Below, in pieces: positions 495 to 56,992 of a stretch of 61,204 bases of DNA. Each line of letters starts with the position of its first letter. The first letter of the stretch is position 1. The translations under genes were made by a program, and so were the position numbers. This DNA is from Candidatus Wolfebacteria bacterium. GTDB taxonomy: Bacteria > Patescibacteriota > Minisyncoccia > Phycocordibacterales > EsbW-18. The stretch covers positions 1 through 61,204 of the forward strand of contig JAKEFG010000014.1 of NCBI GenBank assembly GCA_022616195.1, in the 5' to 3' direction. The notes under the pieces are model-generated. The model did not search any database and was not told the origin of the DNA. It saw only the letters and a program-made list of their open reading frames with translations.

Positions 495-1571
495 TCACTC
501 CTGTCCGAAAAGCGTACCCGATTCTTCGCCACCGGACAACCGCATCACCGCAAGCTCAAGCGGGAGCTGGGGAATATACGCGCGCCCGATGGCGCCATAC
601 GCTTCAAGAAACGCGGAGAGTGTGTCCGAGCGAATTTTTGACCCCGCATCTCCGGCAATACTTTCAAGGAAAACAAAATCCTCGTCCCCGAATTCCTCTT
701 TGAGCTCGTCCTTCATATCACTCGCAAACCGCAACAGGAGCACCGCGCGAATTTTCTCAAGCAACAACTTGGCAAAGATTGTAATATTAACCTCCGCCTC
801 AGCCGCTCCCCGAATGGCAGAGAGTCCCTTCGCGGCGTCACCCTCATGGAGCGCCGCCACAAGCGCATTCACCAATGTCCCTTTGGGCGCGCCCGTGACC
901 GTCTCCACTTCACCAACGCTCACTTTTTTGTCTTTGGACGAGCTGATGACTTTCTGGAGAATTCCCTGCGCATCGCGGAACGACCCCTCGGCGAGAAGCG
1001 CGATGAGTTCACCGGAGGCCTGCTCGAGCGTGAACCCTTCCCGTTTAGCAACATCAAGGATATGGCTCTTGAGCACCGAGCGTGAGGGTTTTCTGAACTG
1101 ATGCACCTCACAGCGAGAGATAACCGTGTCCGGCAGTTTGTGCATCTCTGTCGTCGCCAGAACAAACACCGCATGCGGCGGCGGCTCTTCAAGTGTTTTT
1201 AGAAGTGCATTGAACGCCTCCTTGGTGAGCATGTGTACCTCGTCCACGATGTAGACCTTGTACTTTGAGTCAAACGGGACGGTGTTGACCGCCTCGCGGA
1301 GCTCCCGAACATCGTCAATGCCGCGGTTAGATGCCGCGTCAATTTCGTAAAGGTCCTTTTCGCTTGTGCCGATCTCGCGTGCAAGGATACGTGCCACCGA
1401 GGTCTTCCCGGTGCCGCGCGTGCCGGCAAAGAGATACGCATGCGCGATATTCCCTTCCTTGACTGCGCCTTCAAGCACCTTGACCACCTGCTCTTGCCCC
1501 AACACCTCTTTAAATGTCTTGGGGCGGTACCTGCGATAGAGTGCTATTGGTGCCTCGTTCTTTGACATCAC
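495..1571 (-). CDS. dnaX: DNA polymerase III subunit gamma/tau (short form)
   Basis: 358-aa ORF with YRPKTFKEVLGQEQVV, Walker A GTRGTGKTS, and the DEVHML and SRC motifs typical of clamp-loader gamma/tau. Confidence 0.9.
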   Translation of the reverse strand: MMSKNEAPIALYRRYRPKTFKEVLGQEQVVKVLEGAVKEGNIAHAYLFAGTRGTGKTSVARILAREIGTSEKDLYEIDAASNRGIDDVRELREAVNTVPFDSKYKVYIVDEVHMLTKEAFNALLKTLEEPPPHAVFVLATTEMHKLPDTVISRCEVHQFRKPSRSVLKSHILDVAKREGFTLEQASGELIALLAEGSFRDAQGILQKVISSSKDKKVSVGEVETVTGAPKGTLVNALVAALHEGDAAKGLSAIRGAAEAEVNITIFAKLLLEKIRAVLLLRFASDMKDELKEEFGDEDFVFLESIAGDAGSKIRSDTLSAFLEAYGAIGRAYIPQLPLELAVMRLSGGEESGTLFGQE

Positions 1572-1623
1572 GGCTGATTATAGCAGAAAGTTGTCGTGCG
1601 ACACACGACAACACCAGACAGGC

Positions 1624-2616
1624 CTACTCTCCCTTTTTTGCTAACTCCGCGATAGCTTTCTGTGCCTGACCGATACTATCAGCACCCATAAGCCGCAGAA
1701 GAAACGCTTTGTTGTACCCGTCGCCCTTGAGGTAGCTCTTGAAATGTTTCTTCATCAGGTGAAATGACTTATGGGGCAGTAACTCCTGAAAGAGTGTCAG
1801 GTGTTCACCGAGAACCCGTAAACGCTCGGCAAGCGGCGGACGCTCCTCCACTACACCTACACTGCGGCTATTCTCTAATTCGCGCGAATTAGAGAATAGC
1901 CATGGGTTTCCAAAAATTGCGCGTCCGAGCATAATGCCGTCAGCACCGGTCTCCTCTGCCCGCCGCCGCGCGTCAGCCATATCTTCTATATCACCGTTGC
2001 CAATGATAACTGTTGCGCTTCCGAGAGTGTCACGCATCTGTACTGCGCGAGCTATTTCCTCCCAGTGCGCCGGCACCTTGGACATTTCTTTCTTCGTCCG
2101 GGCATGGAGTGCCACCGCCGCCGGCTCCGTTTCCAAAAGCGTCGGTAACCACGTATCAAGTTCATTCTCGTCGTAGCCGATGCGCGTCTTGATTGATACC
2201 GGAAGCCGTGTCGCCTCTTTTGTTGCGCGGATGATTTCCTGCGCAAGCTTCGGTGCCCGTATCATCGCCGCGCCCGCCCCCTGCTTGCAGACGCTCCGGT
2301 CAGGACACCCCATATTGATGTCCACGCCGTCAAACCCAAGCTTCTCCGCAAGCGCTGCCGCGCGCACCATAAGCTCCGGCTCACGACTAAAAAACTGCGC
2401 GACAATAGGACGCTCCGATTCGTCGTACTGCAGGTCTTTGACAAGTACGTCATAGCCACCCTTAAAGAGACCGTCGGCAGAAATAAACTCGGTCCACATG
2501 ACATCCGGCTTGCCATACCTCGCAATGATGCGGCGGAACGCAGCATCGGTCACGTCCGCCATGGGCGCAAGGCAGAAAAACGGCTTCGATAATGTGTCCC
2601 AAAATCCTCGGTTCAT
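1624..2616 (-). CDS. dus: tRNA-dihydrouridine synthase, carrying a 12-codon palindromic insertion
   Basis: 330-aa ORF with CLAPMADVTD, DINMGCP and GRAIFGNPWLF motifs of the Dus TIM barrel. The insertion is at 1866-1901. Confidence 0.9.
   Translation of the reverse strand: MNRGFWDTLSKPFFCLAPMADVTDAAFRRIIARYGKPDVMWTEFISADGLFKGGYDVLVKDLQYDESERPIVAQFFSREPELMVRAAALAEKLGFDGVDINMGCPDRSVCKQGAGAAMIRAPKLAQEIIRATKEATRLPVSIKTRIGYDENELDTWLPTLLETEPAAVALHARTKKEMSKVPAHWEEIARAVQMRDTLGSATVIIGNGDIEDMADARRRAEETGADGIMLGRAIFGNPWLFSNSRELENSRSVGVVEERPPLAERLRVLGEHLTLFQELLPHKSFHLMKKHFKSYLKGDGYNKAFLLRLMGADSIGQAQKAIAELAKKGE
1866..1901. repeat. Palindromic element, variant 2 (GGCTATTCTCTAATTCGCGCGAATTAGAGAATAGCC), inside dus
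   Basis: Perfect 36-nt palindrome. The 32-nt core is shared with the copies at 12837-12868 and 13185-13220. Confidence 0.9.
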
Positions 2617-2629
2617 ACACCTTGCTACG

Positions 2630-2661
2630 ACATTCCAACATTCTATAGAATGTTGGAATGT
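2630..2661. repeat. 32-nt perfect palindrome ACATTCCAACATTCTATAGAATGTTGGAATGT, a diverged member of the palindromic element family
   Basis: Perfect palindrome in the 55-nt spacer between the ftsQ-like stop and the dus start. It has the same length as the family core and shares an ATTC..A.ATTCT arm pattern with it. Confidence 0.7.
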
Positions 2662-2671
2662 GTTATTTGTG

Positions 2672-3523
2672 TCATTCGTTTTCTATTTGCGTATTAGTGT
2701 CGCGTTCCAATTTATAAAACACTTTGTTCCCGTAGCGCAAATCAATGTAGTCAACTTCAATGAGTCGCCCGTCTTCAAGACGCGTCTTGAGTTCGTTTGC
2801 CCCAAGCACTATTCTTAAATTCTCAAGAATTTGAGAATAGCCGTCGGCGGGGTCAAAGATAATCTCCGCGCCCCCTCTAAGTAACAGCCGGTACTCACGG
2901 TCACCGACAATCGTGAGTTCTACAGGCCCAATGCCAAGCCCCCGTGCCGAAACAACAAAACCGTTCAGTGAACGAAATGCGTCCGGTGCGAGCACTCTGT
3001 CCCCAATCGCACGTGCCGCCTCCGTGACACGGTACACAAACAACGACGCCGATACGTCACTCGCCACTAACGCCGGCGCAAAGATAAACCCGTCTGCATC
3101 AAGTAAAAAACATCGGGTGTCAGAGGCGCAGTATTTGGCAACCTCCTTGCGCTCGGCAACCGTAACCGAAATGGTCGTCAGGTTCTCTACATCAACATCA
3201 ACGTCCTTCACCCGCGGAAACCGCTTGACAATCTCGCGTTCAATGGAAAACCGCGGATACAAGAGAATGTTTCCGCGAGAAAAGAGGTAGAGATAGTGCC
3301 CCCGCACCTTCTCCCGCACCACATCAAGTAGCTGTGGCGACGGTGTGGCGCTGTTTCCGCGCACATTCACTGTGCGGATTGCCGTCGCCTCAACCATGGA
3401 GAGTTGGGAAAGAAGCAGAATGACCGAACCGATGATGGCGAGAAGATATGCCATCCCTTCAATCACAATCTGCCGACGCCGCTGCCGCAGCGTTTGTGTT
3501 CTGATGCGCCGCCTAAGCCGCAT
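2672..3523 (-). CDS. ftsQ: FtsQ-like cell-division protein (N-terminal TM segment plus POTRA domain), carrying a palindromic insertion
   Basis: 283-aa ORF with a basic N-terminus and a TM helix, followed by IRTVNVRGNS...VDVENLTTISVTVAERKEVA, which is typical of POTRA/FtsQ. The element lies at 2809-2840. Confidence 0.7.
   Translation of the reverse strand: MRLRRRIRTQTLRQRRRQIVIEGMAYLLAIIGSVILLLSQLSMVEATAIRTVNVRGNSATPSPQLLDVVREKVRGHYLYLFSRGNILLYPRFSIEREIVKRFPRVKDVDVDVENLTTISVTVAERKEVAKYCASDTRCFLLDADGFIFAPALVASDVSASLFVYRVTEAARAIGDRVLAPDAFRSLNGFVVSARGLGIGPVELTIVGDREYRLLLRGGAEIIFDPADGYSQILENLRIVLGANELKTRLEDGRLIEVDYIDLRYGNKVFYKLERDTNTQIENE
2809..2840. repeat. Palindromic element, variant 1 (CTATTCTTAAATTCTCAAGAATTTGAGAATAG), inside the ftsQ-like gene
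   Basis: 32-nt near-palindrome with one arm mismatch. It is read as YSQILENLRI on the coding (minus) strand. Confidence 0.9.
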
Positions 3524-3527
3524 AGTG

Positions 3528-4772
3528 CTAGGTTATTCTCTGAATAACATCTTTCCCGATGTATGAACGGAGCACTTCGGGGACCACAATGGAGCCATCC
3601 GCCTGCTGGTAATTCTCGACAATTGAGACCAGTATTCTCGGTGTGGAGAGAGCAGTGTTGTTCAGAGAGTGCGCGTAGCGGAGTTTCCCGTTTTCATCCC
3701 GATATCTTATGCCAAGACGTCGAGTTTGAAAATCGTGGAAGTAGGATGAGGAGTGAGTTTCCCGATACTTGTTCTCCGATGGCACCCAGGTCTCAATATC
3801 GTATTTTTTCACCTGCCCAAGTCCGAGATCGCCGGTTGCGTTAATGACGACCTGGTACGGCAACTCAAGAGCCTGTACCAACTCCTCGGCATTTGTAGTG
3901 AGTTCCTCGTGATACTTCACCGACTCATCATGTTTTGCCTCACACAAAACGACCTGTTCAAATTTAAAAATCTCATGCACTCTAAAAATACCCGTGGTGT
4001 CTTTCCCATGACTCCCCGCCTCTCGTCGATACGACGGTGAAAATGACAGAAATTTTATTGGCAATCTGCCTTTCTCAATCACCTCGTCCATGTAGTACGC
4101 CATAGTCGGCACTTCCGCTGTCCCCTGCAAATACAAATCATCTTGTGTTTTGTAAAGGTCTTCTTCTCCCTGCGGTAAATATCCGGTACCGACAAAAGGC
4201 GCCCTTTTCAAAAGTGCTGGAGTGATTATCGGGATGAAATCACCCTTCTGCATCATATGATGAAAGACAAAGTGCCAGATGGCATACGTCAAAGTCGCCG
4301 CATCATTTTTCAGAAAGTATCCGCGAAAACCGGATACTTTCGCGCCACGCTCAAGATCCAGCATGTCTAGATTCTGCATGAGCTCAATGTGGTTTTTGAT
4401 ATCAAATGAAAACCTCGGCTTCTCACCCCATGTTCGAAGCACTGTATTTGCGCTCTCGTCGGGACCAACCGGCGTGTCTGGTGACGGCACGTTGGGAACC
4501 TTTATCATGAGAGTGACAAACTCCTTCTCCATCCGTTTGTACATTTCTTCGAGCGTCTTGAGTTCGTCTTTAATACGCCTTCCCTCTTCGACATCGCGCT
4601 CCGCCGCTGCCTTGTTGCGTTCCTGGTTGAGACCATCTATTTCCGTGCGGAGTGATTTCCGTTTCTCGTAGAGCTCCAGAACTTTGTTCAAATCAACCGG
4701 CTCGCCTTTCTTGTCGGCAATTGCCTTCTCAACGAGAACCCGATTCTCTTGTATGAATTTGATGTCAAGCAT
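3528..4772 (-). CDS. serS: Seryl-tRNA synthetase
   Basis: 414-aa ORF with an N-terminal coiled-coil arm (MLDIKFIQEN...) and class II core motifs (FRVHEF, GLGQ, NNTALSTPRILV). Confidence 0.95.
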   Translation of the reverse strand: MLDIKFIQENRVLVEKAIADKKGEPVDLNKVLELYEKRKSLRTEIDGLNQERNKAAAERDVEEGRRIKDELKTLEEMYKRMEKEFVTLMIKVPNVPSPDTPVGPDESANTVLRTWGEKPRFSFDIKNHIELMQNLDMLDLERGAKVSGFRGYFLKNDAATLTYAIWHFVFHHMMQKGDFIPIITPALLKRAPFVGTGYLPQGEEDLYKTQDDLYLQGTAEVPTMAYYMDEVIEKGRLPIKFLSFSPSYRREAGSHGKDTTGIFRVHEIFKFEQVVLCEAKHDESVKYHEELTTNAEELVQALELPYQVVINATGDLGLGQVKKYDIETWVPSENKYRETHSSSYFHDFQTRRLGIRYRDENGKLRYAHSLNNTALSTPRILVSIVENYQQADGSIVVPEVLRSYIGKDVIQRIT

Positions 4773-11829: not shown

Positions 11830-12825
11830 AACCAAAACTCCTCGTCATTCTCGGACCGACGGCTTCAGGCAAGAGCACACTTGCCGTAGAGCTCACCAAG
11901 CAGTTTAATGGTGAGGTGATTTCTGCCGATTCGCGACAGGTGTACCGCGGACTTGATATTGGCACAGGCAAGGTCCCACGGGACTCAACCGACGACCAAC
12001 AACTTACAACCAGCGACTATTTTCACAAAGGCATCAGACATCATTTGCTTGATGTCGCGGAGCCAAACGACTATTTCTCCGTCGCCGATTACAAAAAACT
12101 GGCGGATGAAGCAATTCATACGATATATCGTATGAAAAAGCTGCCCATTCTCGCTGGCGGCACGGGGCTCTACGTTCAGGCAGTCGTCGATAACGTCGTA
12201 CCCCCAGAAGTACCACCCAACAAAAAACTCCGTGCTGAACTCGCGGAAAAATCAACGGGGGAGCTCTTCGCGGAACTCAAACGCCTTGACCCGACGCGGG
12301 CGGAAACGGTTGAGCGAGAAAACCCGCGCCGCCTCATCCGCGCCATTGAAATCGCGCGCGCACTGGAGAGCGTCCCCAGTCAAGATATCGCATTCCCCGC
12401 CGATTACAGCACAAGTCCCTATGACATACTCCAAATCGGTCTTGGCGTTCCCATTGAAACACTTACTGAGCACGTTCATGCTCGGGTCATTGAACGCCTG
12501 AAGAACGGGTGGGTGAATGAGGTACAGAATCTTCTTGCCCAAGGTGTTACACCGGAACACCTTGCCGAGTTTGGTCTCGGCTACAGGATTATCGCCTCCG
12601 CCATACAAAAAAACGGGGGGGGACGGAACCTATTCTCAAATTCTTGAGAATTTGAGAATAGGTTCCGAGAAGTGGAATAAGATGGTAGATACGATTACGA
12701 CTGCGGAGCGACGGTACGCCAAGCGCCAAATGCGGTGGTTTAAACGTGACCGGCGCATCCTGTGGTTCAGCCTTGGTGGGACAGAGAAAATCTTGAACGC
12801 GGTACAAAAATTCCTCCAAACATAA
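11826..12825 (+). CDS. miaA: tRNA dimethylallyltransferase MiaA; apparent +1 frameshift at a G8 tract, plus an in-frame palindromic insertion
   Basis: P-loop GPTASGKS, then SADSRQVYRGLDIGT and GGTGLY. The C-terminal YAKRQMRWF motif lies in the +1 frame (ORF 12517..12825). The two frames rejoin if the G-run at 12615-12622 is 7 nt rather than 8. Confidence 0.85.
12624..12667. repeat. Palindromic element, variant 1, extended to 44 nt (CGGAACC-TATTCTCAAATTCTTGAGAATTTGAGAATA-GGTTCCG), inside miaA
   Basis: 21-bp arms with a TG centre. It is read as YSQILENLRI in the downstream miaA frame. Confidence 0.9.
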
Positions 12826-12836
12826 CTGGTCTACAT

Positions 12837-12868
12837 CTATTCCACCACTCGCGCGAATTAGAGGAGGG
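12837..12868. repeat. Degenerate palindromic element, variant 2 (CTATTCCACCACTCGCGCGAATTAGAGGAGGG)
   Basis: It matches the variant 2 core at CTATTC.....(T)TCGCGCGAATTAGAG. It lies between the convergent miaA and arsR-family genes and contains the arsR-family stop codon. Confidence 0.6.
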
Positions 12869-13109
12869 ATACGATGGAGCGGGCCGGTTGTGAAAGTGTC
12901 CCGCCAAGACGGTAAAACACCTGTAAACTTCGCTGCTCGTGTTCCACAATATCCACCGCCGCCAAAAGCGAAAGGTGTTTTGACGTTGCCTTGAGTGAAA
13001 GACCGATTGCATCGGCAACCTCGCCTACCGCCGCCTCTTTCTCATCCTTGAGAAATTTCAGAATGGCGAGGCGCCGCCGGTTTGCAAGCGCTTTGAGCAC
13101 CCGCTCCAT
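12858..13109 (-). CDS. ArsR/SmtB-family transcriptional regulator
   Basis: MERVLKALANRRRLAILKFLKDEKEAAVGEVADAIGLSLKATSKHLSLL is a classic ArsR HTH. I chose the internal ATG at 13109 as the start. Confidence 0.8.
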   Translation of the reverse strand: MERVLKALANRRRLAILKFLKDEKEAAVGEVADAIGLSLKATSKHLSLLAAVDIVEHEQRSLQVFYRLGGTLSQPARSIVSLL

Positions 13110-13184
13110 TCGTACATTACTTTGTATATTACTACTCCGCATACATGCCCTGTGTCTGCCCCGCCACATCTACCCTACCACTAT

Positions 13185-13220
13185 CACTATTCTCTAATTC
13201 GCGCGAACTAGAGAATAGTG
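13185..13220. repeat. Palindromic element, variant 2, intergenic copy (CACTATTCTCTAATTCGCGCGAACTAGAGAATAGTG)
   Basis: 36-nt palindrome with one mismatch, lying between the MGMT-like stop and the arsR-family start. Confidence 0.85.
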
Positions 13221-17063: not shown

Positions 17064-17103
17064 TATACCCCCCACATGGAAATTTTTCCATGTGGGGGGT
17101 ATA
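17064..17103. repeat. GTATACCC-type hairpin (TATACCCCCCACATGGAAA-TT-TTTCCATGTGGGGGGTATA)
   Basis: 19-bp perfect arms, lying between the groEL stop and the lemA start. Confidence 0.8.
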
Positions 17104-27811: not shown

Positions 27812-28534
27812 TCATCCTTCGGCTGATTGATAATCGGTAGAGCCTAGTTGCTGAAAATAGTCGATGGCTTCTTCAGCGTCACCGCTTTCAAATATAGCAG
27901 ACCCGGCAACGAGTTTGTTCACACCTGCCTCCACGAGCTTGGGTGCGGTTTCCTCGTTCACGCCGATGTCAACCGCGATGGTCAGGTCAGGAAACTTCCT
28001 GCGGATAGTTTTCACTTTTTCATAGACGCGCTCATCAAGCTCCGCACCATGGTAGCCAATTCGGTCGTTCCCCATCACTTGCACGAAATCCGGCATGCCG
28101 TGTTCTTTAATAATCCGAAACAGTTCATCGTTCGGTGTGTTGGGCCTCATGCCCCACCCGACCTCCATCTCAGCTATTCTCAAATTCTTGAGAATTTGAG
28201 AATAGCTCCTGGTGGACTCAATGTGAATCACCGTGCCCACAATACCCGCGTGAATCCAGCCATCCAGATACTTCTCCGGCTCGGCAACGAGCATGTCTAC
28301 CTCGACATCAAGCTCGCGCCAGAACGGCAGTCCCTCGTCCTCGCGAACAATTCGCGCGAACTGTTCACTTACCTGTTTGGTCATGTCGTTGTACGGCCAC
28401 GTTGTTGTCGGCGCATAGCTGCCGTTCGCAATGTCTACTTGCACCCGTTCCACCAACCCCTTCACCCGCACCATATGCGCTTCAAGATCGTCAAAATCCT
28501 TTGGAATGATGGCCGGAACAACAGAGACAGTCAT
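27812..28534 (-). CDS. rpe: Ribulose-phosphate 3-epimerase-like TIM-barrel protein, carrying a palindromic insertion
   Basis: 240 aa with VVPAIIP...VQVDIANG and a C-terminal VDIGVNEETAPKLVEAGVNKLVAGSAIF. It sits in an operon-like block with rpiB, gap and tkt. The element lies at 28172-28207. Confidence 0.75.
   Translation of the reverse strand: MTVSVVPAIIPKDFDDLEAHMVRVKGLVERVQVDIANGSYAPTTTWPYNDMTKQVSEQFARIVREDEGLPFWRELDVEVDMLVAEPEKYLDGWIHAGIVGTVIHIESTRSYSQILKNLRIAEMEVGWGMRPNTPNDELFRIIKEHGMPDFVQVMGNDRIGYHGAELDERVYEKVKTIRRKFPDLTIAVDIGVNEETAPKLVEAGVNKLVAGSAIFESGDAEEAIDYFQQLGSTDYQSAEG
28172..28207. repeat. Palindromic element, variant 1 (AGCTATTCTCAAATTCTTGAGAATTTGAGAATAGCT), inside the rpe-like gene
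   Basis: 36-nt palindrome with a TG centre. It is read as YSQILKNLRI on the coding (minus) strand. Confidence 0.9.
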
Positions 28535-38150: not shown

Positions 38151-38192
38151 TATACCCAGCACCACTTTTATATAAAAGTGGTGCTGGGTGTA
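38151..38192. repeat. GTATACCC-type hairpin (36-nt perfect palindrome ACCCAGCACCACTTTTATATAAAAGTGGTGCTGGGT)
   Basis: It lies in the 87-nt divergent spacer between the GT4 start and the gdh start. Confidence 0.85.
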
Positions 38193-49500: not shown

Positions 49501-49510
49501 ACCATATACC

Positions 49511-49539
49511 AAACTCTAGCGATTAATCGCTAGAGTTTT
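49511..49539. terminator. Bidirectional rho-independent terminator between convergent genes
   Basis: AAACTCTAGCG-ATTAAT-CGCTAGAGTTTT. It has an A-run on one side and a T-run on the other. Confidence 0.6.
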
Positions 49540-49553
49540 GTAAAGGGTGTCGC

Positions 49554-55527: not shown

Positions 55528-55571
55528 GTATACCCCGCACCATTTTTAAATAAAAATGGTGCGGGGTATAC
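55528..55571. repeat. GTATACCC-type hairpin (GTATACCCCGCACCATTTTTA-AA-TAAAAATGGTGCGGGGTATAC)
   Basis: 21-bp perfect arms. Overlapping ORFs on both strands read the same KNGAGYT peptide here, as expected for a palindrome. Confidence 0.85.
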
Positions 55572-56661: not shown

Positions 56662-56946
56662 AGAGTTTATGTATGATACTTAGTGTTAGAAACGAAAATT
56701 CCCGCTGACGCGGGATTCGCTGCCTCTTACGAGGACAGCTCTATCCTAGCATGGCCTCATAAAAAAGTCAATACTTGGCAATCTTCCCTTGTGTCTGTCA
56801 ACCAATGGCTCTGTTGAGCCGCCCGGGAGTAAATTCTCTTTTAGGGACGCGGAGGAAATCCCCGGGCGATTGTGCCCGATGTTGCACCAAAACCCTGCTT
56901 AGACACCCGCATCTGCTATACCCCCTCACCTTTTTGAACATGCGGG

Positions 56947-56992
56947 GTATACCCAGCACCGCTTTTGCGAACAAAAGCGGTGCTGGGTATAC
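56947..56992. repeat. GTATACCC-type hairpin (GTATACCCAGCACCGCTTTTG-CGAA-CAAAAGCGGTGCTGGGTATAC)
   Basis: 21-bp perfect arms, in the divergent spacer between the sleB-like and sod genes. A partial extra arm, TATACCCC, lies at 56917-56924. Confidence 0.85.

Follow-up and report, generated by a model that had tools for sequence, protein, structure and literature searches.

How does a gene for tRNA-dihydrouridine synthase (dus) come to carry a perfect palindrome in frame, and what is that palindrome? In the window, by which we mean the whole stretch of 61,204 nucleotides that was analyzed, the sequence GGCTATTCTCTAATTCGCGCGAATTAGAGAATAGCC forms a perfect palindrome of 18+18 nt which is translated as part of Dus (...GNPW-LFSNSRELENS-RSVG...), the remaining two frames being interrupted by TAA and TAG on direct reading. 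On both of these points the initial annotation of the locus was accurate. It had further taken the dus palindrome to be the founding copy of a family of inserted elements that colonize housekeeping genes in the manner of Rickettsia palindromic elements (RPEs). We suggest instead that the dus palindrome is probably one copy of an operator-type site distributed across the Patescibacteria, most likely bound by a small ArsR-type regulator, and that its palindromy arises via template switching.

The pattern ATTC-N4-ATTC-N4-GAAT-N4-GAAT is matched six times in the window against 0.05 matches expected by chance, and the total for the window comes to six good copies and one degenerate copy (Table 1). 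Allowing up to three mismatches to the degenerate core, a scan of the window returned five copies (at 1868, 2809, 12630, 13187 and 28174) and 100 shuffles of the window returned none; solitary half-sites of the motif were not found in the window. The copies listed initially at 2809, 12630, 13185 and 28174 therefore stand, while that at 12837 is degenerate, with six mismatches. A further copy, beyond those listed at the time, is the CAAC-type palindrome in the 55-nt gap between the ftsQ-like gene and dus, 14 nt 5' of the dus ATG; it was called terminator-like on the plus strand by the terminator scan, and this variant is also present in L164 and L202, while in L078 it flanks an ArsR paralogue. 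Several copies do lie in frame within housekeeping genes as had been described, but the copy at the end of miaA does not do so cleanly: the upstream frame reaches a stop within the element, and the C-terminal part of MiaA is encoded in the +1 frame. An A7-C-G8 run at 12607-12623 lies beside this copy, and the frame change may be a sequencing error. The copies in dus, the ftsQ-like gene and rpe are separated from the next start codon by 195-380 nt, which is not typical operator spacing.

Table 1. Copies of the motif and associated genes in the window.
Feature	Position	Strand	Details
dus (tRNA-dihydrouridine synthase), palindrome host	1624-2616	minus	330 aa, Pfam PF01207
T-type palindrome in dus	1866-1901	.	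core 1870-1897 = ATTCTCTAATTCGCGCGAATTAGAGAAT; in-frame, peptide LFSNSRELENS
CAAC-type copy (third motif variant)	2630-2661	.	ATTCCAACATTCTATAGAATGTTGGAAT core; perfect 32-nt palindrome
FtsQ-like (POTRA) gene, host of the 2809 copy	2672-3523	minus	
A-type copy in ftsQ-like gene	2809-2840	.	1 mismatch; peptide YSQILENLRI
A-type copy near miaA 3' end	12624-12667	.	perfect 21+2+21 palindrome, CGGAAC/GTTCCG flanks
Degenerate T-type copy	12837-12868	.	6 mismatches; overlaps stop codon of ArsR-like gene
Small ArsR/SmtB-family winged-helix gene, proposed T-type binder	12858-13142	minus	94 aa as called, ~83-aa conserved core
T-type copy, proposed autoregulatory operator	13185-13220	.	1 mismatch; 45 nt 5' of ArsR-like ATG at 13142
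ribulose-phosphate 3-epimerase gene (rpe), host of the 28174 copy	27812-28534	minus	
A-type copy in rpe	28172-28207	.	peptide YSQILKNLRI

Beyond the window, the 28-nt core was found in more than 100 Patescibacteria assemblies, at loci with a GC content of 31-62%, and since these are independent assemblies from many studies an assembly artefact is ruled out. Its four tetramers form a 12-4-12 inverted repeat; the shared unit measures 28-32 bp, with flanks that are unrelated from copy to copy. About 73% of the copies are extragenic, many of them at the 3' ends of genes. Dispersed copies are identical at 28 of 28 positions, an information content far above what a transcription factor needs, and contigs of 151-876 kb carry at least two to three blocks of exact copies. 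No account of the motif, or of an ArsR regulon, in CPR/Patescibacteria was found in the literature. Across this phylum-wide distribution the motif is found most constantly flanking a small ArsR-family gene on either side, and the status of dus as the founding copy is accordingly abandoned.

The protein encoded by this gene belongs to a family of about 86 aa (Pfam HTH_20/HTH_5) that shows 60-80% identity across classes and has HlyU, NolR, CzrA and SmtB as its nearest solved relatives. No metal-sensing residues are evident in its alignment, and family searches detected the winged-helix DNA-binder fold only, with no catalytic domain. When the search was seeded with the palindrome, the gene was a neighbor of the motif at about 32 of the 121 loci; a copy lies 2-92 nt 5' of the ATG in 33 of the 36 genes recovered in this way, and a second copy is found at or after the stop codon in 28 of them. 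The reciprocal search, seeded with the protein, gave 80 metagenome loci, of which 76 were testable, with the motif upstream in 67/76 and at or after the stop in 69/76. Clustering of the genes downstream of 148 copies identified the ArsR-like family as the only recurrent neighbor, and no regulon of recurrent targets beyond the regulator's own gene was found among these downstream genes. The association is specific, in that two protein subfamilies correspond to two motif classes: proteins of the type found in the window occur with the T-type motif, and the second subfamily with the A/CAAC-type. Both paralogues are present on one contig in L191 and L202, each beside its own variant, and in L191 each is flanked on both sides by that variant. 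The two sites flanking an ArsR-like gene match even where the variant is rare (L078, L011, L005). Protein and site are thus associated, covary and are conserved together, and from this association we predict that the ArsR-like protein is most likely the factor that binds the motif.

ArsR/SmtB repressors are known to bind inverted repeats of the 12-2-12 type located in the promoters of their own genes. The sites described here share with the operators of SmtB, CzrA, NolR and HlyU the protein family and a long AT-rich inverted repeat with symmetric half-sites of about 12 bp located 5' of the regulator's gene, and two properties expected of such operators, a repeat of the form ~12-N-12 in the regulator's own promoter region and a site that covaries with the protein as cognate pairs, are both observed. 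They differ in the 12-4-12 spacing with its four-tetramer pattern, in the absence of evident metal-sensing residues, in the second site over the stop codon of the gene, in the extra sites within housekeeping genes, and in being conserved nearly base for base throughout a phylum. A simple promoter scan did not detect a sigma-70-like promoter at the proposed autoregulatory site. The possibility that the right arm of the motif provides the -10 box of the arsR promoter (as GGTAGAAT) was considered and rejected, as the difference between upstream and downstream sites is too small to favor it (5 versus 3 cases).

Many of the sites from the protein-seeded search retain the sequence nTTCTCTA-ATTC-GCGC-GAAT-rGnn-GAAT without retaining its pairing, the left arm being kept and the right arm degenerate, and this conservation of sequence without pairing fits protein recognition better than hairpin function. 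The motif could be read as a structural hairpin of RNA or single-stranded DNA, acting as a terminator, mRNA stabilizer or processing site, given the very stable hairpins predicted for the copies (-13 to -32 kcal/mol, z down to -8; -25.1 kcal/mol and z = -7.95 for the dus copy), the compensated changes and paired flanks, the many copies at gene 3' ends, and the A-run and T-run on either side of some intergenic copies (e.g., L027, L033, L079, L083). We nevertheless consider this very improbable: most cassette sites in the protein-seeded set cannot fold fully and yet keep their sequence, the T-run is missing at most stop-codon copies, the terminator scan called no terminator-like site at the ArsR cassette, and a hairpin function would not require an invariant sequence of 24 nt over a GC range of 31-62%. 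A search of Rfam gave no family above the gathering thresholds in the window, and only chance-level miRNA matches around the copies. Intrinsic terminators differ from the motif also in composition, the core of the dus copy having 29% G+C in place of a G+C-rich stem, and A/T runs accompany only a subset of the intergenic copies.

The degenerate right arm also counts against a second possibility, that the motif is a site-specific recombination site of the tyrosine/Xer type, with the ArsR-like gene as the flanked module and the genome-specific center as the crossover region. The 28-mer can indeed also be parsed as 11-6-11 with variation mostly restricted to the center, as in dif/pdif sites, and the center is usually common to both sites around a gene, in direct or inverted orientation. 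Sites of the dif/Xer type occur once per replicon near the terminus, or bound modules next to recombinase-dependent junctions. However, many copies lie in essential genes, where recombination between them could be expected to cause lethal rearrangements; the neighbor clustering shows no recombinase gene as a recurrent neighbor; and one identical ArsR protein is found in the same gene context in all 6 places listed, of 23 contigs, so that a recombination site seems a most unlikely explanation. With respect to the deeper history of the cassette, this constant context is uninformative.

The genic copies bear on whether the motif was inserted into its host genes, in which case orthologues lacking it should show a gap of the length of the element. 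The window has three further genic copies, and two of them show the opposite: FtsQ-like orthologues without the palindrome have homologous residues and no gap (GYDHLLGNLTIVL, SYTQALSDLSVIL), and Rpe with the palindrome aligns free of gaps to human RPE, without a change in length relative to solved RPE structures. In other genomes, the copy in SHMT likewise shows no gap against its orthologues, and that in AlaRS is accompanied by a length change of at most one residue. Against the palindrome-free orthologue nearest to it, the FtsQ-like copy shows 15 differences in 32 nt and no indel, a distance that is hard to cover via single substitutions. In UvrC, the peptide FSNSQEFENAA may overlay a native LEFEEAA motif; where UvrC was aligned with solved structures, the UVR domain fell outside the aligned part. 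The copies in TsaD (+14 aa) and Tgt (+9-11 aa) coincide with insertions roughly as long as the element. An element-length gap in orthologues is therefore not a general feature of the motif family, and while the initial annotation was right that a family of short palindromes exists and that some of its members are genic and in frame, these are not gene-colonizing insertions in FtsQ-like, Rpe, SHMT or AlaRS.

Dus itself gives a more complicated picture. The gene sits in a conserved order, serS-ftsQ-like-dus-dnaX, and the palindrome occurs at the equivalent site in seven further Dus genes. It is unchanged in eight Dus orthologues though many synonymous sites in the flanking codons differ, which points to constraint on the DNA itself. 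Many orthologues are shorter at this point in the alignment, in keeping with the gap that had been anticipated; the loop that hosts the palindrome is, however, variable in length and contains different palindromes in other lineages, and the net extra length among the eight palindrome-holding genes ranges from about +2 to +13 residues, with +13 aa in the Dus of the window. The distribution of the palindrome over Dus orthologues is patchy, and the nearest relative (L118) has a decayed copy. In the dus gene of L207 the left arm of the sole inverted repeat consists of the native codons for PWLFAS, which we count in favor of template switching.

Together with the copies elsewhere in the genome, these observations could also be explained by a selfish short palindrome of the RPE, REP or MITE kind that propagates itself within the genome, either via hairpin-dependent transposition or through templated copying of short patches. 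The ArsR-like gene between two copies would then be a master or associated cassette, and the genic copies would be tolerated hitch-hikers. Such a scenario is supported by the center tetranucleotide of the T-type motif, which is identical in 32/34 pairs within genomes against 26% between genomes, a pattern that looks like copying or concerted evolution and not like the independent evolution of binding sites. The near-perfect identity of dispersed copies, the element-sized insertions in TsaD, Tgt and the Dus of the window, and the patchy distribution in Dus with its decayed copy in L118 point the same way, as do the stop codons of the ArsR and MiaA genes, which fall within the repeat, and the repeat-flanked gene, which recalls the RAYT genes found between REPs. 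On the other side, length is unchanged in FtsQ-like, Rpe and SHMT and nearly so in AlaRS, and orthologous copies stay intact amid diverged synonymous sites where neutral inserts would decay. Comparison of the flanks revealed no target-site duplications at the copies, the cassette sites are often non-palindromic, and the flanked gene encodes a winged-helix DNA binder without a catalytic domain. Copy number appears low, and the motif found no match among the INPHARED phages, PLSDB plasmids or IMG/VR. Taken as a whole, we regard a selfish element as rather unlikely.

Comparison with the individual element families leads in the same direction. RPEs, at about 100-150 bp, are genuine insertions, and they degenerate together with the gene that hosts them. 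The present motif resembles them as a palindromic repeat in frame in conserved housekeeping genes of a small-genome bacterium, but its unit is 28-36 bp, it often replaces native codons without a change in length, it is invariant at orthologous sites and it is tied to the gene of a DNA-binding protein. With the REP/REPIN-RAYT system it shares a palindrome of 20-40 bp, a mostly extragenic distribution and an associated gene between copies. REP palindromes are marked at one end by a conserved tetranucleotide, GTAG or CGTC (PMC3733652), whereas only 10 of 129 copies here have either tag within 8 nt of an end on either strand; moreover, the flanked gene is a winged-helix regulator and not an IS200/IS605-like Y1 transposase, and copies are few per genome, with some in coding sequence. 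MITEs derive from an IS and combine terminal inverted repeats with direct target-site duplications; here the flanks are inverted complements, not direct duplications, and there is no internal sequence outside the palindrome.

The behavior of these flanks concerns the palindromy itself, which had been proposed to be generated or maintained beyond the core through flanks that differ from copy to copy, and this proposal is borne out statistically. At five positions outside the 28-mer, pairing among 129 copies from many genomes amounts to 0.83, 0.74, 0.53, 0.53 and 0.45, where base frequencies give an expected complementarity of 0.58, 0.41, 0.29, 0.29 and 0.29, and three or more additional pairs beyond the core are present in 34/89 copies against 3.8 expected by permutation. 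In the dus copy, this extension into the flank pairs the GG of the invariant Trp codon with CC. Within the motif, the bases at variable positions 7 and 22 complement each other in 128/129 copies, the changes in diverged copies mostly come in even numbers as compensated pairs, and the centers of two copies flanking one gene can be flipped relative to each other (GCCC/GGGC, TCAC/GTGA, GTGC/GCAC). The perfect palindromes, compensated double changes, flipped centers and growth into unrelated flanks are best explained by template switching. Homogenization of the arms, expansion of the inverted repeat into its flanks and inversion of the spacer, along with clustered changes free of indels, are likewise outcomes of quasipalindrome template switching described in two reports (PMC8604942, PMC13100816). 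Such switching is a mutational process and not an element, and it explains the perfection of the copies, not the recurrence of the motif.

In principle, recurrence could result from natural competence, with biased uptake and subsequent recombination enriching a motif of the DNA-uptake-sequence type in the Patescibacteria. Indel-free genic copies at peptide-compatible places, genome-specific "dialects" and persistence at orthologous positions would all fit. We find this scarcely credible, however, as DUS/USS motifs number hundreds to thousands of single units, far more than the at least two to three exact-copy blocks per contig of 151-876 kb seen here; solitary half-sites are missing from the window, and the two-sided tie to the ArsR-like gene would be left unexplained.

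Returning to the operator-type site, we suggest that the motif serves as a double-stranded DNA recognition site for dimers of a small, sensor-less ArsR/SmtB-family protein. The regulator's gene has one copy in its promoter region, which would make autoregulation possible, and a second copy over its stop codon; a few more copies per genome lie between or inside other genes, including the conserved 3' position in dus upstream of dnaX, where the copy may have a regulatory effect. At least two paralogous regulators exist, one with the T-type and one with the A/CAAC-type variant. Switching of the DNA polymerase between the arms of the inverted repeat would homogenize and extend them. In genes, the motif overwrites native codons where the native peptide was already close to LFSNSxELEN or YSQILxNLRI, or else occupies variable loops. 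A comparable arrangement is offered by the parS sites of ParB, which are palindromic, very widely conserved, low in copy number and often situated without indels in coding sequence. The motif is similarly a palindromic site, with protein binding predicted, that is conserved over very wide phylogenetic distance, but it involves a different protein family, is not associated with partition genes, is 28 bp long as opposed to 16 bp, and flanks the gene of its own putative binder. A more speculative scenario, which we hold to be doubtful, is that the operator propagates itself: the regulator would be bracketed by its own site, and that site of 28-36 bp would be copied elsewhere by templated short-patch synthesis or template switching, overwriting codons in frame as readily as inserting and becoming homogenized in each genome. 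If true, it would constitute a transposase-free mobile cis-element across the Patescibacteria, rewiring the target genes of the regulator.

The Patescibacteria (CPR) account for a large part of the diversity of bacteria and have tiny genomes with very few regulators, and to our knowledge almost nothing is known of how their genes are controlled. A near-invariant, phylum-wide pair of a regulator and its predicted binding site, with the motif recurring at set places, for example in the 3' portion of dus within the conserved serS-ftsQ-dus-dnaX cluster, provides a testable handle on regulation in this group. The copies in SHMT, AlaRS, Rpe and FtsQ-like represent an unusually clear natural case of a long DNA-level signal laid over coding sequence, and they also illustrate how template switching at inverted repeats could remodel protein sequence. 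For genome annotation, palindromes of this kind create stop codons or frame changes at the ends of genes, as in MiaA and ArsR, and they may break assemblies.

The dus gene of the window contains the sequence GGCTATTCTCTAATTCGCGCGAATTAGAGAATAGCC, a perfect palindrome of 18+18 nt. Its host is a 330-aa ORF encoding a tRNA-dihydrouridine synthase (Dus, Pfam PF01207) with best homologues in Patescibacteria (identity up to 71%), which translates the palindrome as LFSNSRELENS immediately C-terminal to GNPW; TAA and TAG occur in the two remaining frames. Sequence and translation thus confirm what the initial annotation had reported at this site. It had also described a family of window copies, and this was confirmed too: its degenerate core recovers five copies at ≤3 mismatches and none in 100 shuffles. 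The copy at 12837 is degenerate, and a perfect palindrome just upstream of dus had been missed. The 28-nt core ATTC-N4-ATTC-N4-GAAT-N4-GAAT, which has T-type, A-type and CAAC-type variants, occurs at 6 window sites against 0.05 expected, and single-strand hairpins of −13 to −32 kcal/mol are predicted for the window copies.

Palindromic features of the window and the genes that carry or adjoin them
Feature	Position (nt)	Strand	Remarks
serS - ftsQ-like - dus - dnaX	495-4772		One motif copy each of three variants within 1 kb (2811, 2632, 1870)
Dus ORF	1624-2616	minus	
Perfect palindrome in dus	1866-1901		
Perfect 32-nt palindrome	2630-2661		14 nt upstream of dus start codon
miaA	11826-12647		On to ~12830 in +1 frame
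miaA frame change	12607-12667		At A7-C-G8 run, just 5' of palindrome
Degenerate motif copy	12837-12868		Overlaps ArsR-like stop
ArsR-like gene	12858-13142	minus	Bracketed layout as in other loci
Near-perfect motif copy	13185-13220		45 nt upstream of ArsR-like gene
Near-perfect 22-nt palindrome in rpe	28345-28366		GAACAATTCGCGCGAACTGTTC; inner core AATTCGCGCGAA as in T-type motif, outer arms differ; 170 nt from A-type copy of same gene; encodes EQFARIV
Second, unrelated long-palindrome family	17064-17103, 38151-38192, 55528-55571, 56941-56958		Common outer arms TATACCCC..CAC / GTG..GGGGTATA, inner parts variable; copies at 17064 and 38151 between long ORFs
Imperfect 24+24 palindrome	49501-49548		88% complementary, ACCATATACCAAACTCTAGCGATT/AATCGCTAGAGTTTTGTAAAGGGT; unrelated to ATTC/GAAT motif family

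An exact-pattern scan with ATTCTCNAATTCNNNNGAATTNGAGAAT, using one genome per species, returned at least 117 stretches; among the matches listed, nearly all are from Patescibacteria of many classes, with a few MAGs labelled otherwise, and the G+C content of the loci spans 31-62%. Motif-bearing assemblies labelled Elusimicrobia, Bdellovibrionales, Gammaproteobacteria, Planctomycetota or Oscillospiraceae are found among the retrieved loci L005, L006, L008, L012, L013, L026, L029, L060, L099, L103, L107 and L112; several have the appearance of small CPR-type genomes under a wrong label (e.g., an 876-kb single contig). In L099 (62% GC) the G-type core has an A-run on one side and a T-run on the other, and this match may be an unrelated terminator that fits the pattern by chance. 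The proposal that palindromy itself is maintained was borne out. Among the matches listed, the two free positions of the arms can pair with each other in 128 of 129 exact copies, around variable centre tetranucleotides (GCGC, TTAA, TCAA/TTGA, TGCA, TCAC/GTGA, GTAC, GCAC/GTGC), and allowing ≤5 substitutions yields 170 copies, with none in shuffles. Given their distribution of mismatch counts (0:129, 1:5, 2:14, 3:6, 4:11, 5:5), diverged copies mostly carry compensated pairs of changes, and pairing reaches about 5 positions into otherwise unrelated flanks, well over expectation. No matching family was found in Rfam, nor, in the literature searched, a description of the motif. Identity with Rickettsia palindromic elements, REPs or MITEs was rejected, since defining features of each were tested and did not fit. 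An uptake sequence would account for some features and fail on others, and is scarcely credible.

Clustering of the ORFs adjoining 148 copies gave, among the matches listed, a single recurrent family, a protein of ~86 aa placed by Pfam in HTH_20/HTH_5, with HlyU, NolR, CzrA and SmtB as its closest solved relatives. Identity within this ArsR-like family is 60-80% in an alignment of 27 members; the LKALANRRR...SKH core is invariant, and no Cys/His pattern in that alignment suggests a metal site. In the palindrome-seeded loci, among the matches listed, a copy lies 2-92 nt upstream of the ATG in 33 of 36 ArsR-like genes and a second at or just after the stop in 28 of the 36; the left arm contains the TAA stop (...ATT/CTT CTC TAA) of one subfamily, and in the other the palindrome encodes the final nine codons (ILKFLRxLE). 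As this association is open to discovery bias, a reciprocal search was seeded by the protein alignment, giving 80 metagenome loci of which 76 were testable. The motif was present upstream in 67/76 and at or after the stop in 69/76, with the consensus nTTCTCTA-ATTC-GCGC-GAAT-rGnn-GAAT. At many of these sites the sequence is kept where a full hairpin is impossible; a pure hairpin or terminator, which explains some features and fails on others, is very improbable. The motif also covaries with the protein: of the two subfamilies, the window type always accompanies T-type sites and the second goes with A-type or CAAC-type sites, and where both paralogues lie side by side (L191 and L202) each adjoins its own variant, on two sides in L191. 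The ArsR gene directly adjoins dnaX in L121 and L011. Many contigs bearing it are very short (0.5-2 kb), which may merely mirror the generally short contigs of the collection; alternatively, flanking palindromes could break short-read assemblies.

The best-supported reading of these sequences is that the motif serves as a putative site at which the ArsR-like protein binds double-stranded DNA. It would work like an ArsR/SmtB operator, which it resembles in sitting in the regulator's own promoter region and in the cognate covariation of site and protein. We suggest an operator-type site (12-4-12, four tetramers) that would mediate autoregulation at the protein's own gene, with a few further sites elsewhere, among them the one in the 3' part of dus, whose position in the serS-ftsQ-like-dus-dnaX cluster is conserved.

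About a quarter of the copies, among the matches listed, lie within long ORFs, always in an open frame. Hosts are Dus (8 genomes, same site), MiaA, MurD, UvrC, TatD, glycosyltransferases, MnmA, Tgt, TsaD, AlaRS, SHMT, PurN, RsmD, Mpg and Rpe. The initial annotation took such copies for insertions, and alignment of host proteins to orthologues or solved structures gave a mixed outcome: extra residues are present in TsaD (+14 aa), Tgt (+9-11 aa) and Dus (variable), but of the three further genic copies in the window, those in FtsQ-like and Rpe overlie homologous residues without a gap, a pattern that the initial annotation had set out as refuting its view. In the FtsQ-like protein GYSQILENLRIVL faces GYDHLLGNLTIVL, SYTQALSDLSVIL and LSKVSQNLASLL of syntenic orthologues with no gap or a one-residue difference, and 15 of 32 nt differ from the nearest palindrome-free orthologue without an indel; Rpe aligns gaplessly with human RPE (native residues ALIKDIRENGM), as does SHMT (L084) with three SHMT chains among the alignments listed, and in AlaRS (L056) the palindrome-encoded stretch overlays native YPELVKAQEQVE with no gap or a one-residue difference. 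A selfish element copying itself would explain the insertions of roughly element size, the excess of sequence information and the concerted centres within genomes, but is unlikely in view of the genic copies lacking an indel, the invariant copies at orthologous sites, the non-palindromic sites around the ArsR-like gene and the lack of a catalytic gene; moreover, GTAG/CGTC tags lie near only 10/129 copies among the matches listed, and the motif was not found in phage, plasmid and viral collections. In the window miaA, frame 0 reads ...NLFSNS up to a TGA at the centre of the palindrome and the conserved C-terminus (ERRYAKRQMRWFKRD) resumes in the +1 frame, which points either to an error of assembly at the homopolymer or to a miaA that is split or pseudogenised; MiaA of L034 and L088 terminates within the palindrome (..ILKFLRI).

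Most Dus orthologues read GNPWLF-SG-KSRP with nothing intervening; the window Dus is ~13 residues longer at this loop, and Kaiserbacteria Dus with the same palindrome only 2-4. In the closest relative, L118, the copy is decayed and carries 18 additional nt in its centre, L119 and L120 contain hairpin-like inserts whose arms are related (CAATCTTG...CAAGATTG and CAATTTGTC...GACAAATTG), and L207 dus (1612-1650) holds an unrelated palindrome whose left arm is native CCGTGGCTTTTTGCATCG (PWLFAS) and whose right arm is its reverse complement, an arrangement suggestive of a fold-back (template-switch) inverted duplication in an essential gene. Because these four loci hold other sequences exactly there, the loop is a recurrent birthplace of palindromes. 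Across the 8 Dus genes the surrounding codons differ at many synonymous positions, and the motif is constant save for paired position 7/22 and the centre. This indicates that the motif is under constraint, or ongoing correction, at the DNA level; an old insert decaying neutrally would leave another pattern. The gene order serS - ftsQ-like - dus - dnaX is kept across distant Patescibacteria (the window, L036, L055, L113, L120, L121, L208).

Copies within a genome resemble each other. Among the matches listed, the T-type centre is common to 32/34 within-assembly pairs as against 26% between assemblies, and the copies on either side of one ArsR gene have even rare variants in common. Together with the indel-free FtsQ-like copy, this argues against simple independent binding sites. 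A recombination site (11-6-11 with a shared centre) covers some features and fails on others, and we give it very little credence. For the putative operator, polymerase template switching between inverted-repeat arms may shape the copies: perfect palindromy, compensated double changes, flipped centres and flank extension are among the template-switch outcomes described in PMC8604942 and PMC13100816. Centres flipped around one gene do occur (GCCC/GGGC, TCAC/GTGA, GTGC/GCAC), and the dus palindrome reaches as far as the GG of the invariant Trp codon, so that the CC at its opposite end was most likely copied from this GG. The same process would act on purely native sequence in L207. The sequences themselves show that motif and gene are associated, that they covary and that they are conserved; from these patterns we infer binding, a regulatory consequence and the seeding of new copies.

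The motif and its protein would thus belong to an ordinary regulator-and-site class, but an unusual one: near-invariant across the phylum, with copies on both sides of the gene and a stop codon embedded in one, with housekeeping genes carrying in-frame copies that replace native sequence instead of adding to it, and homogenised genome by genome.
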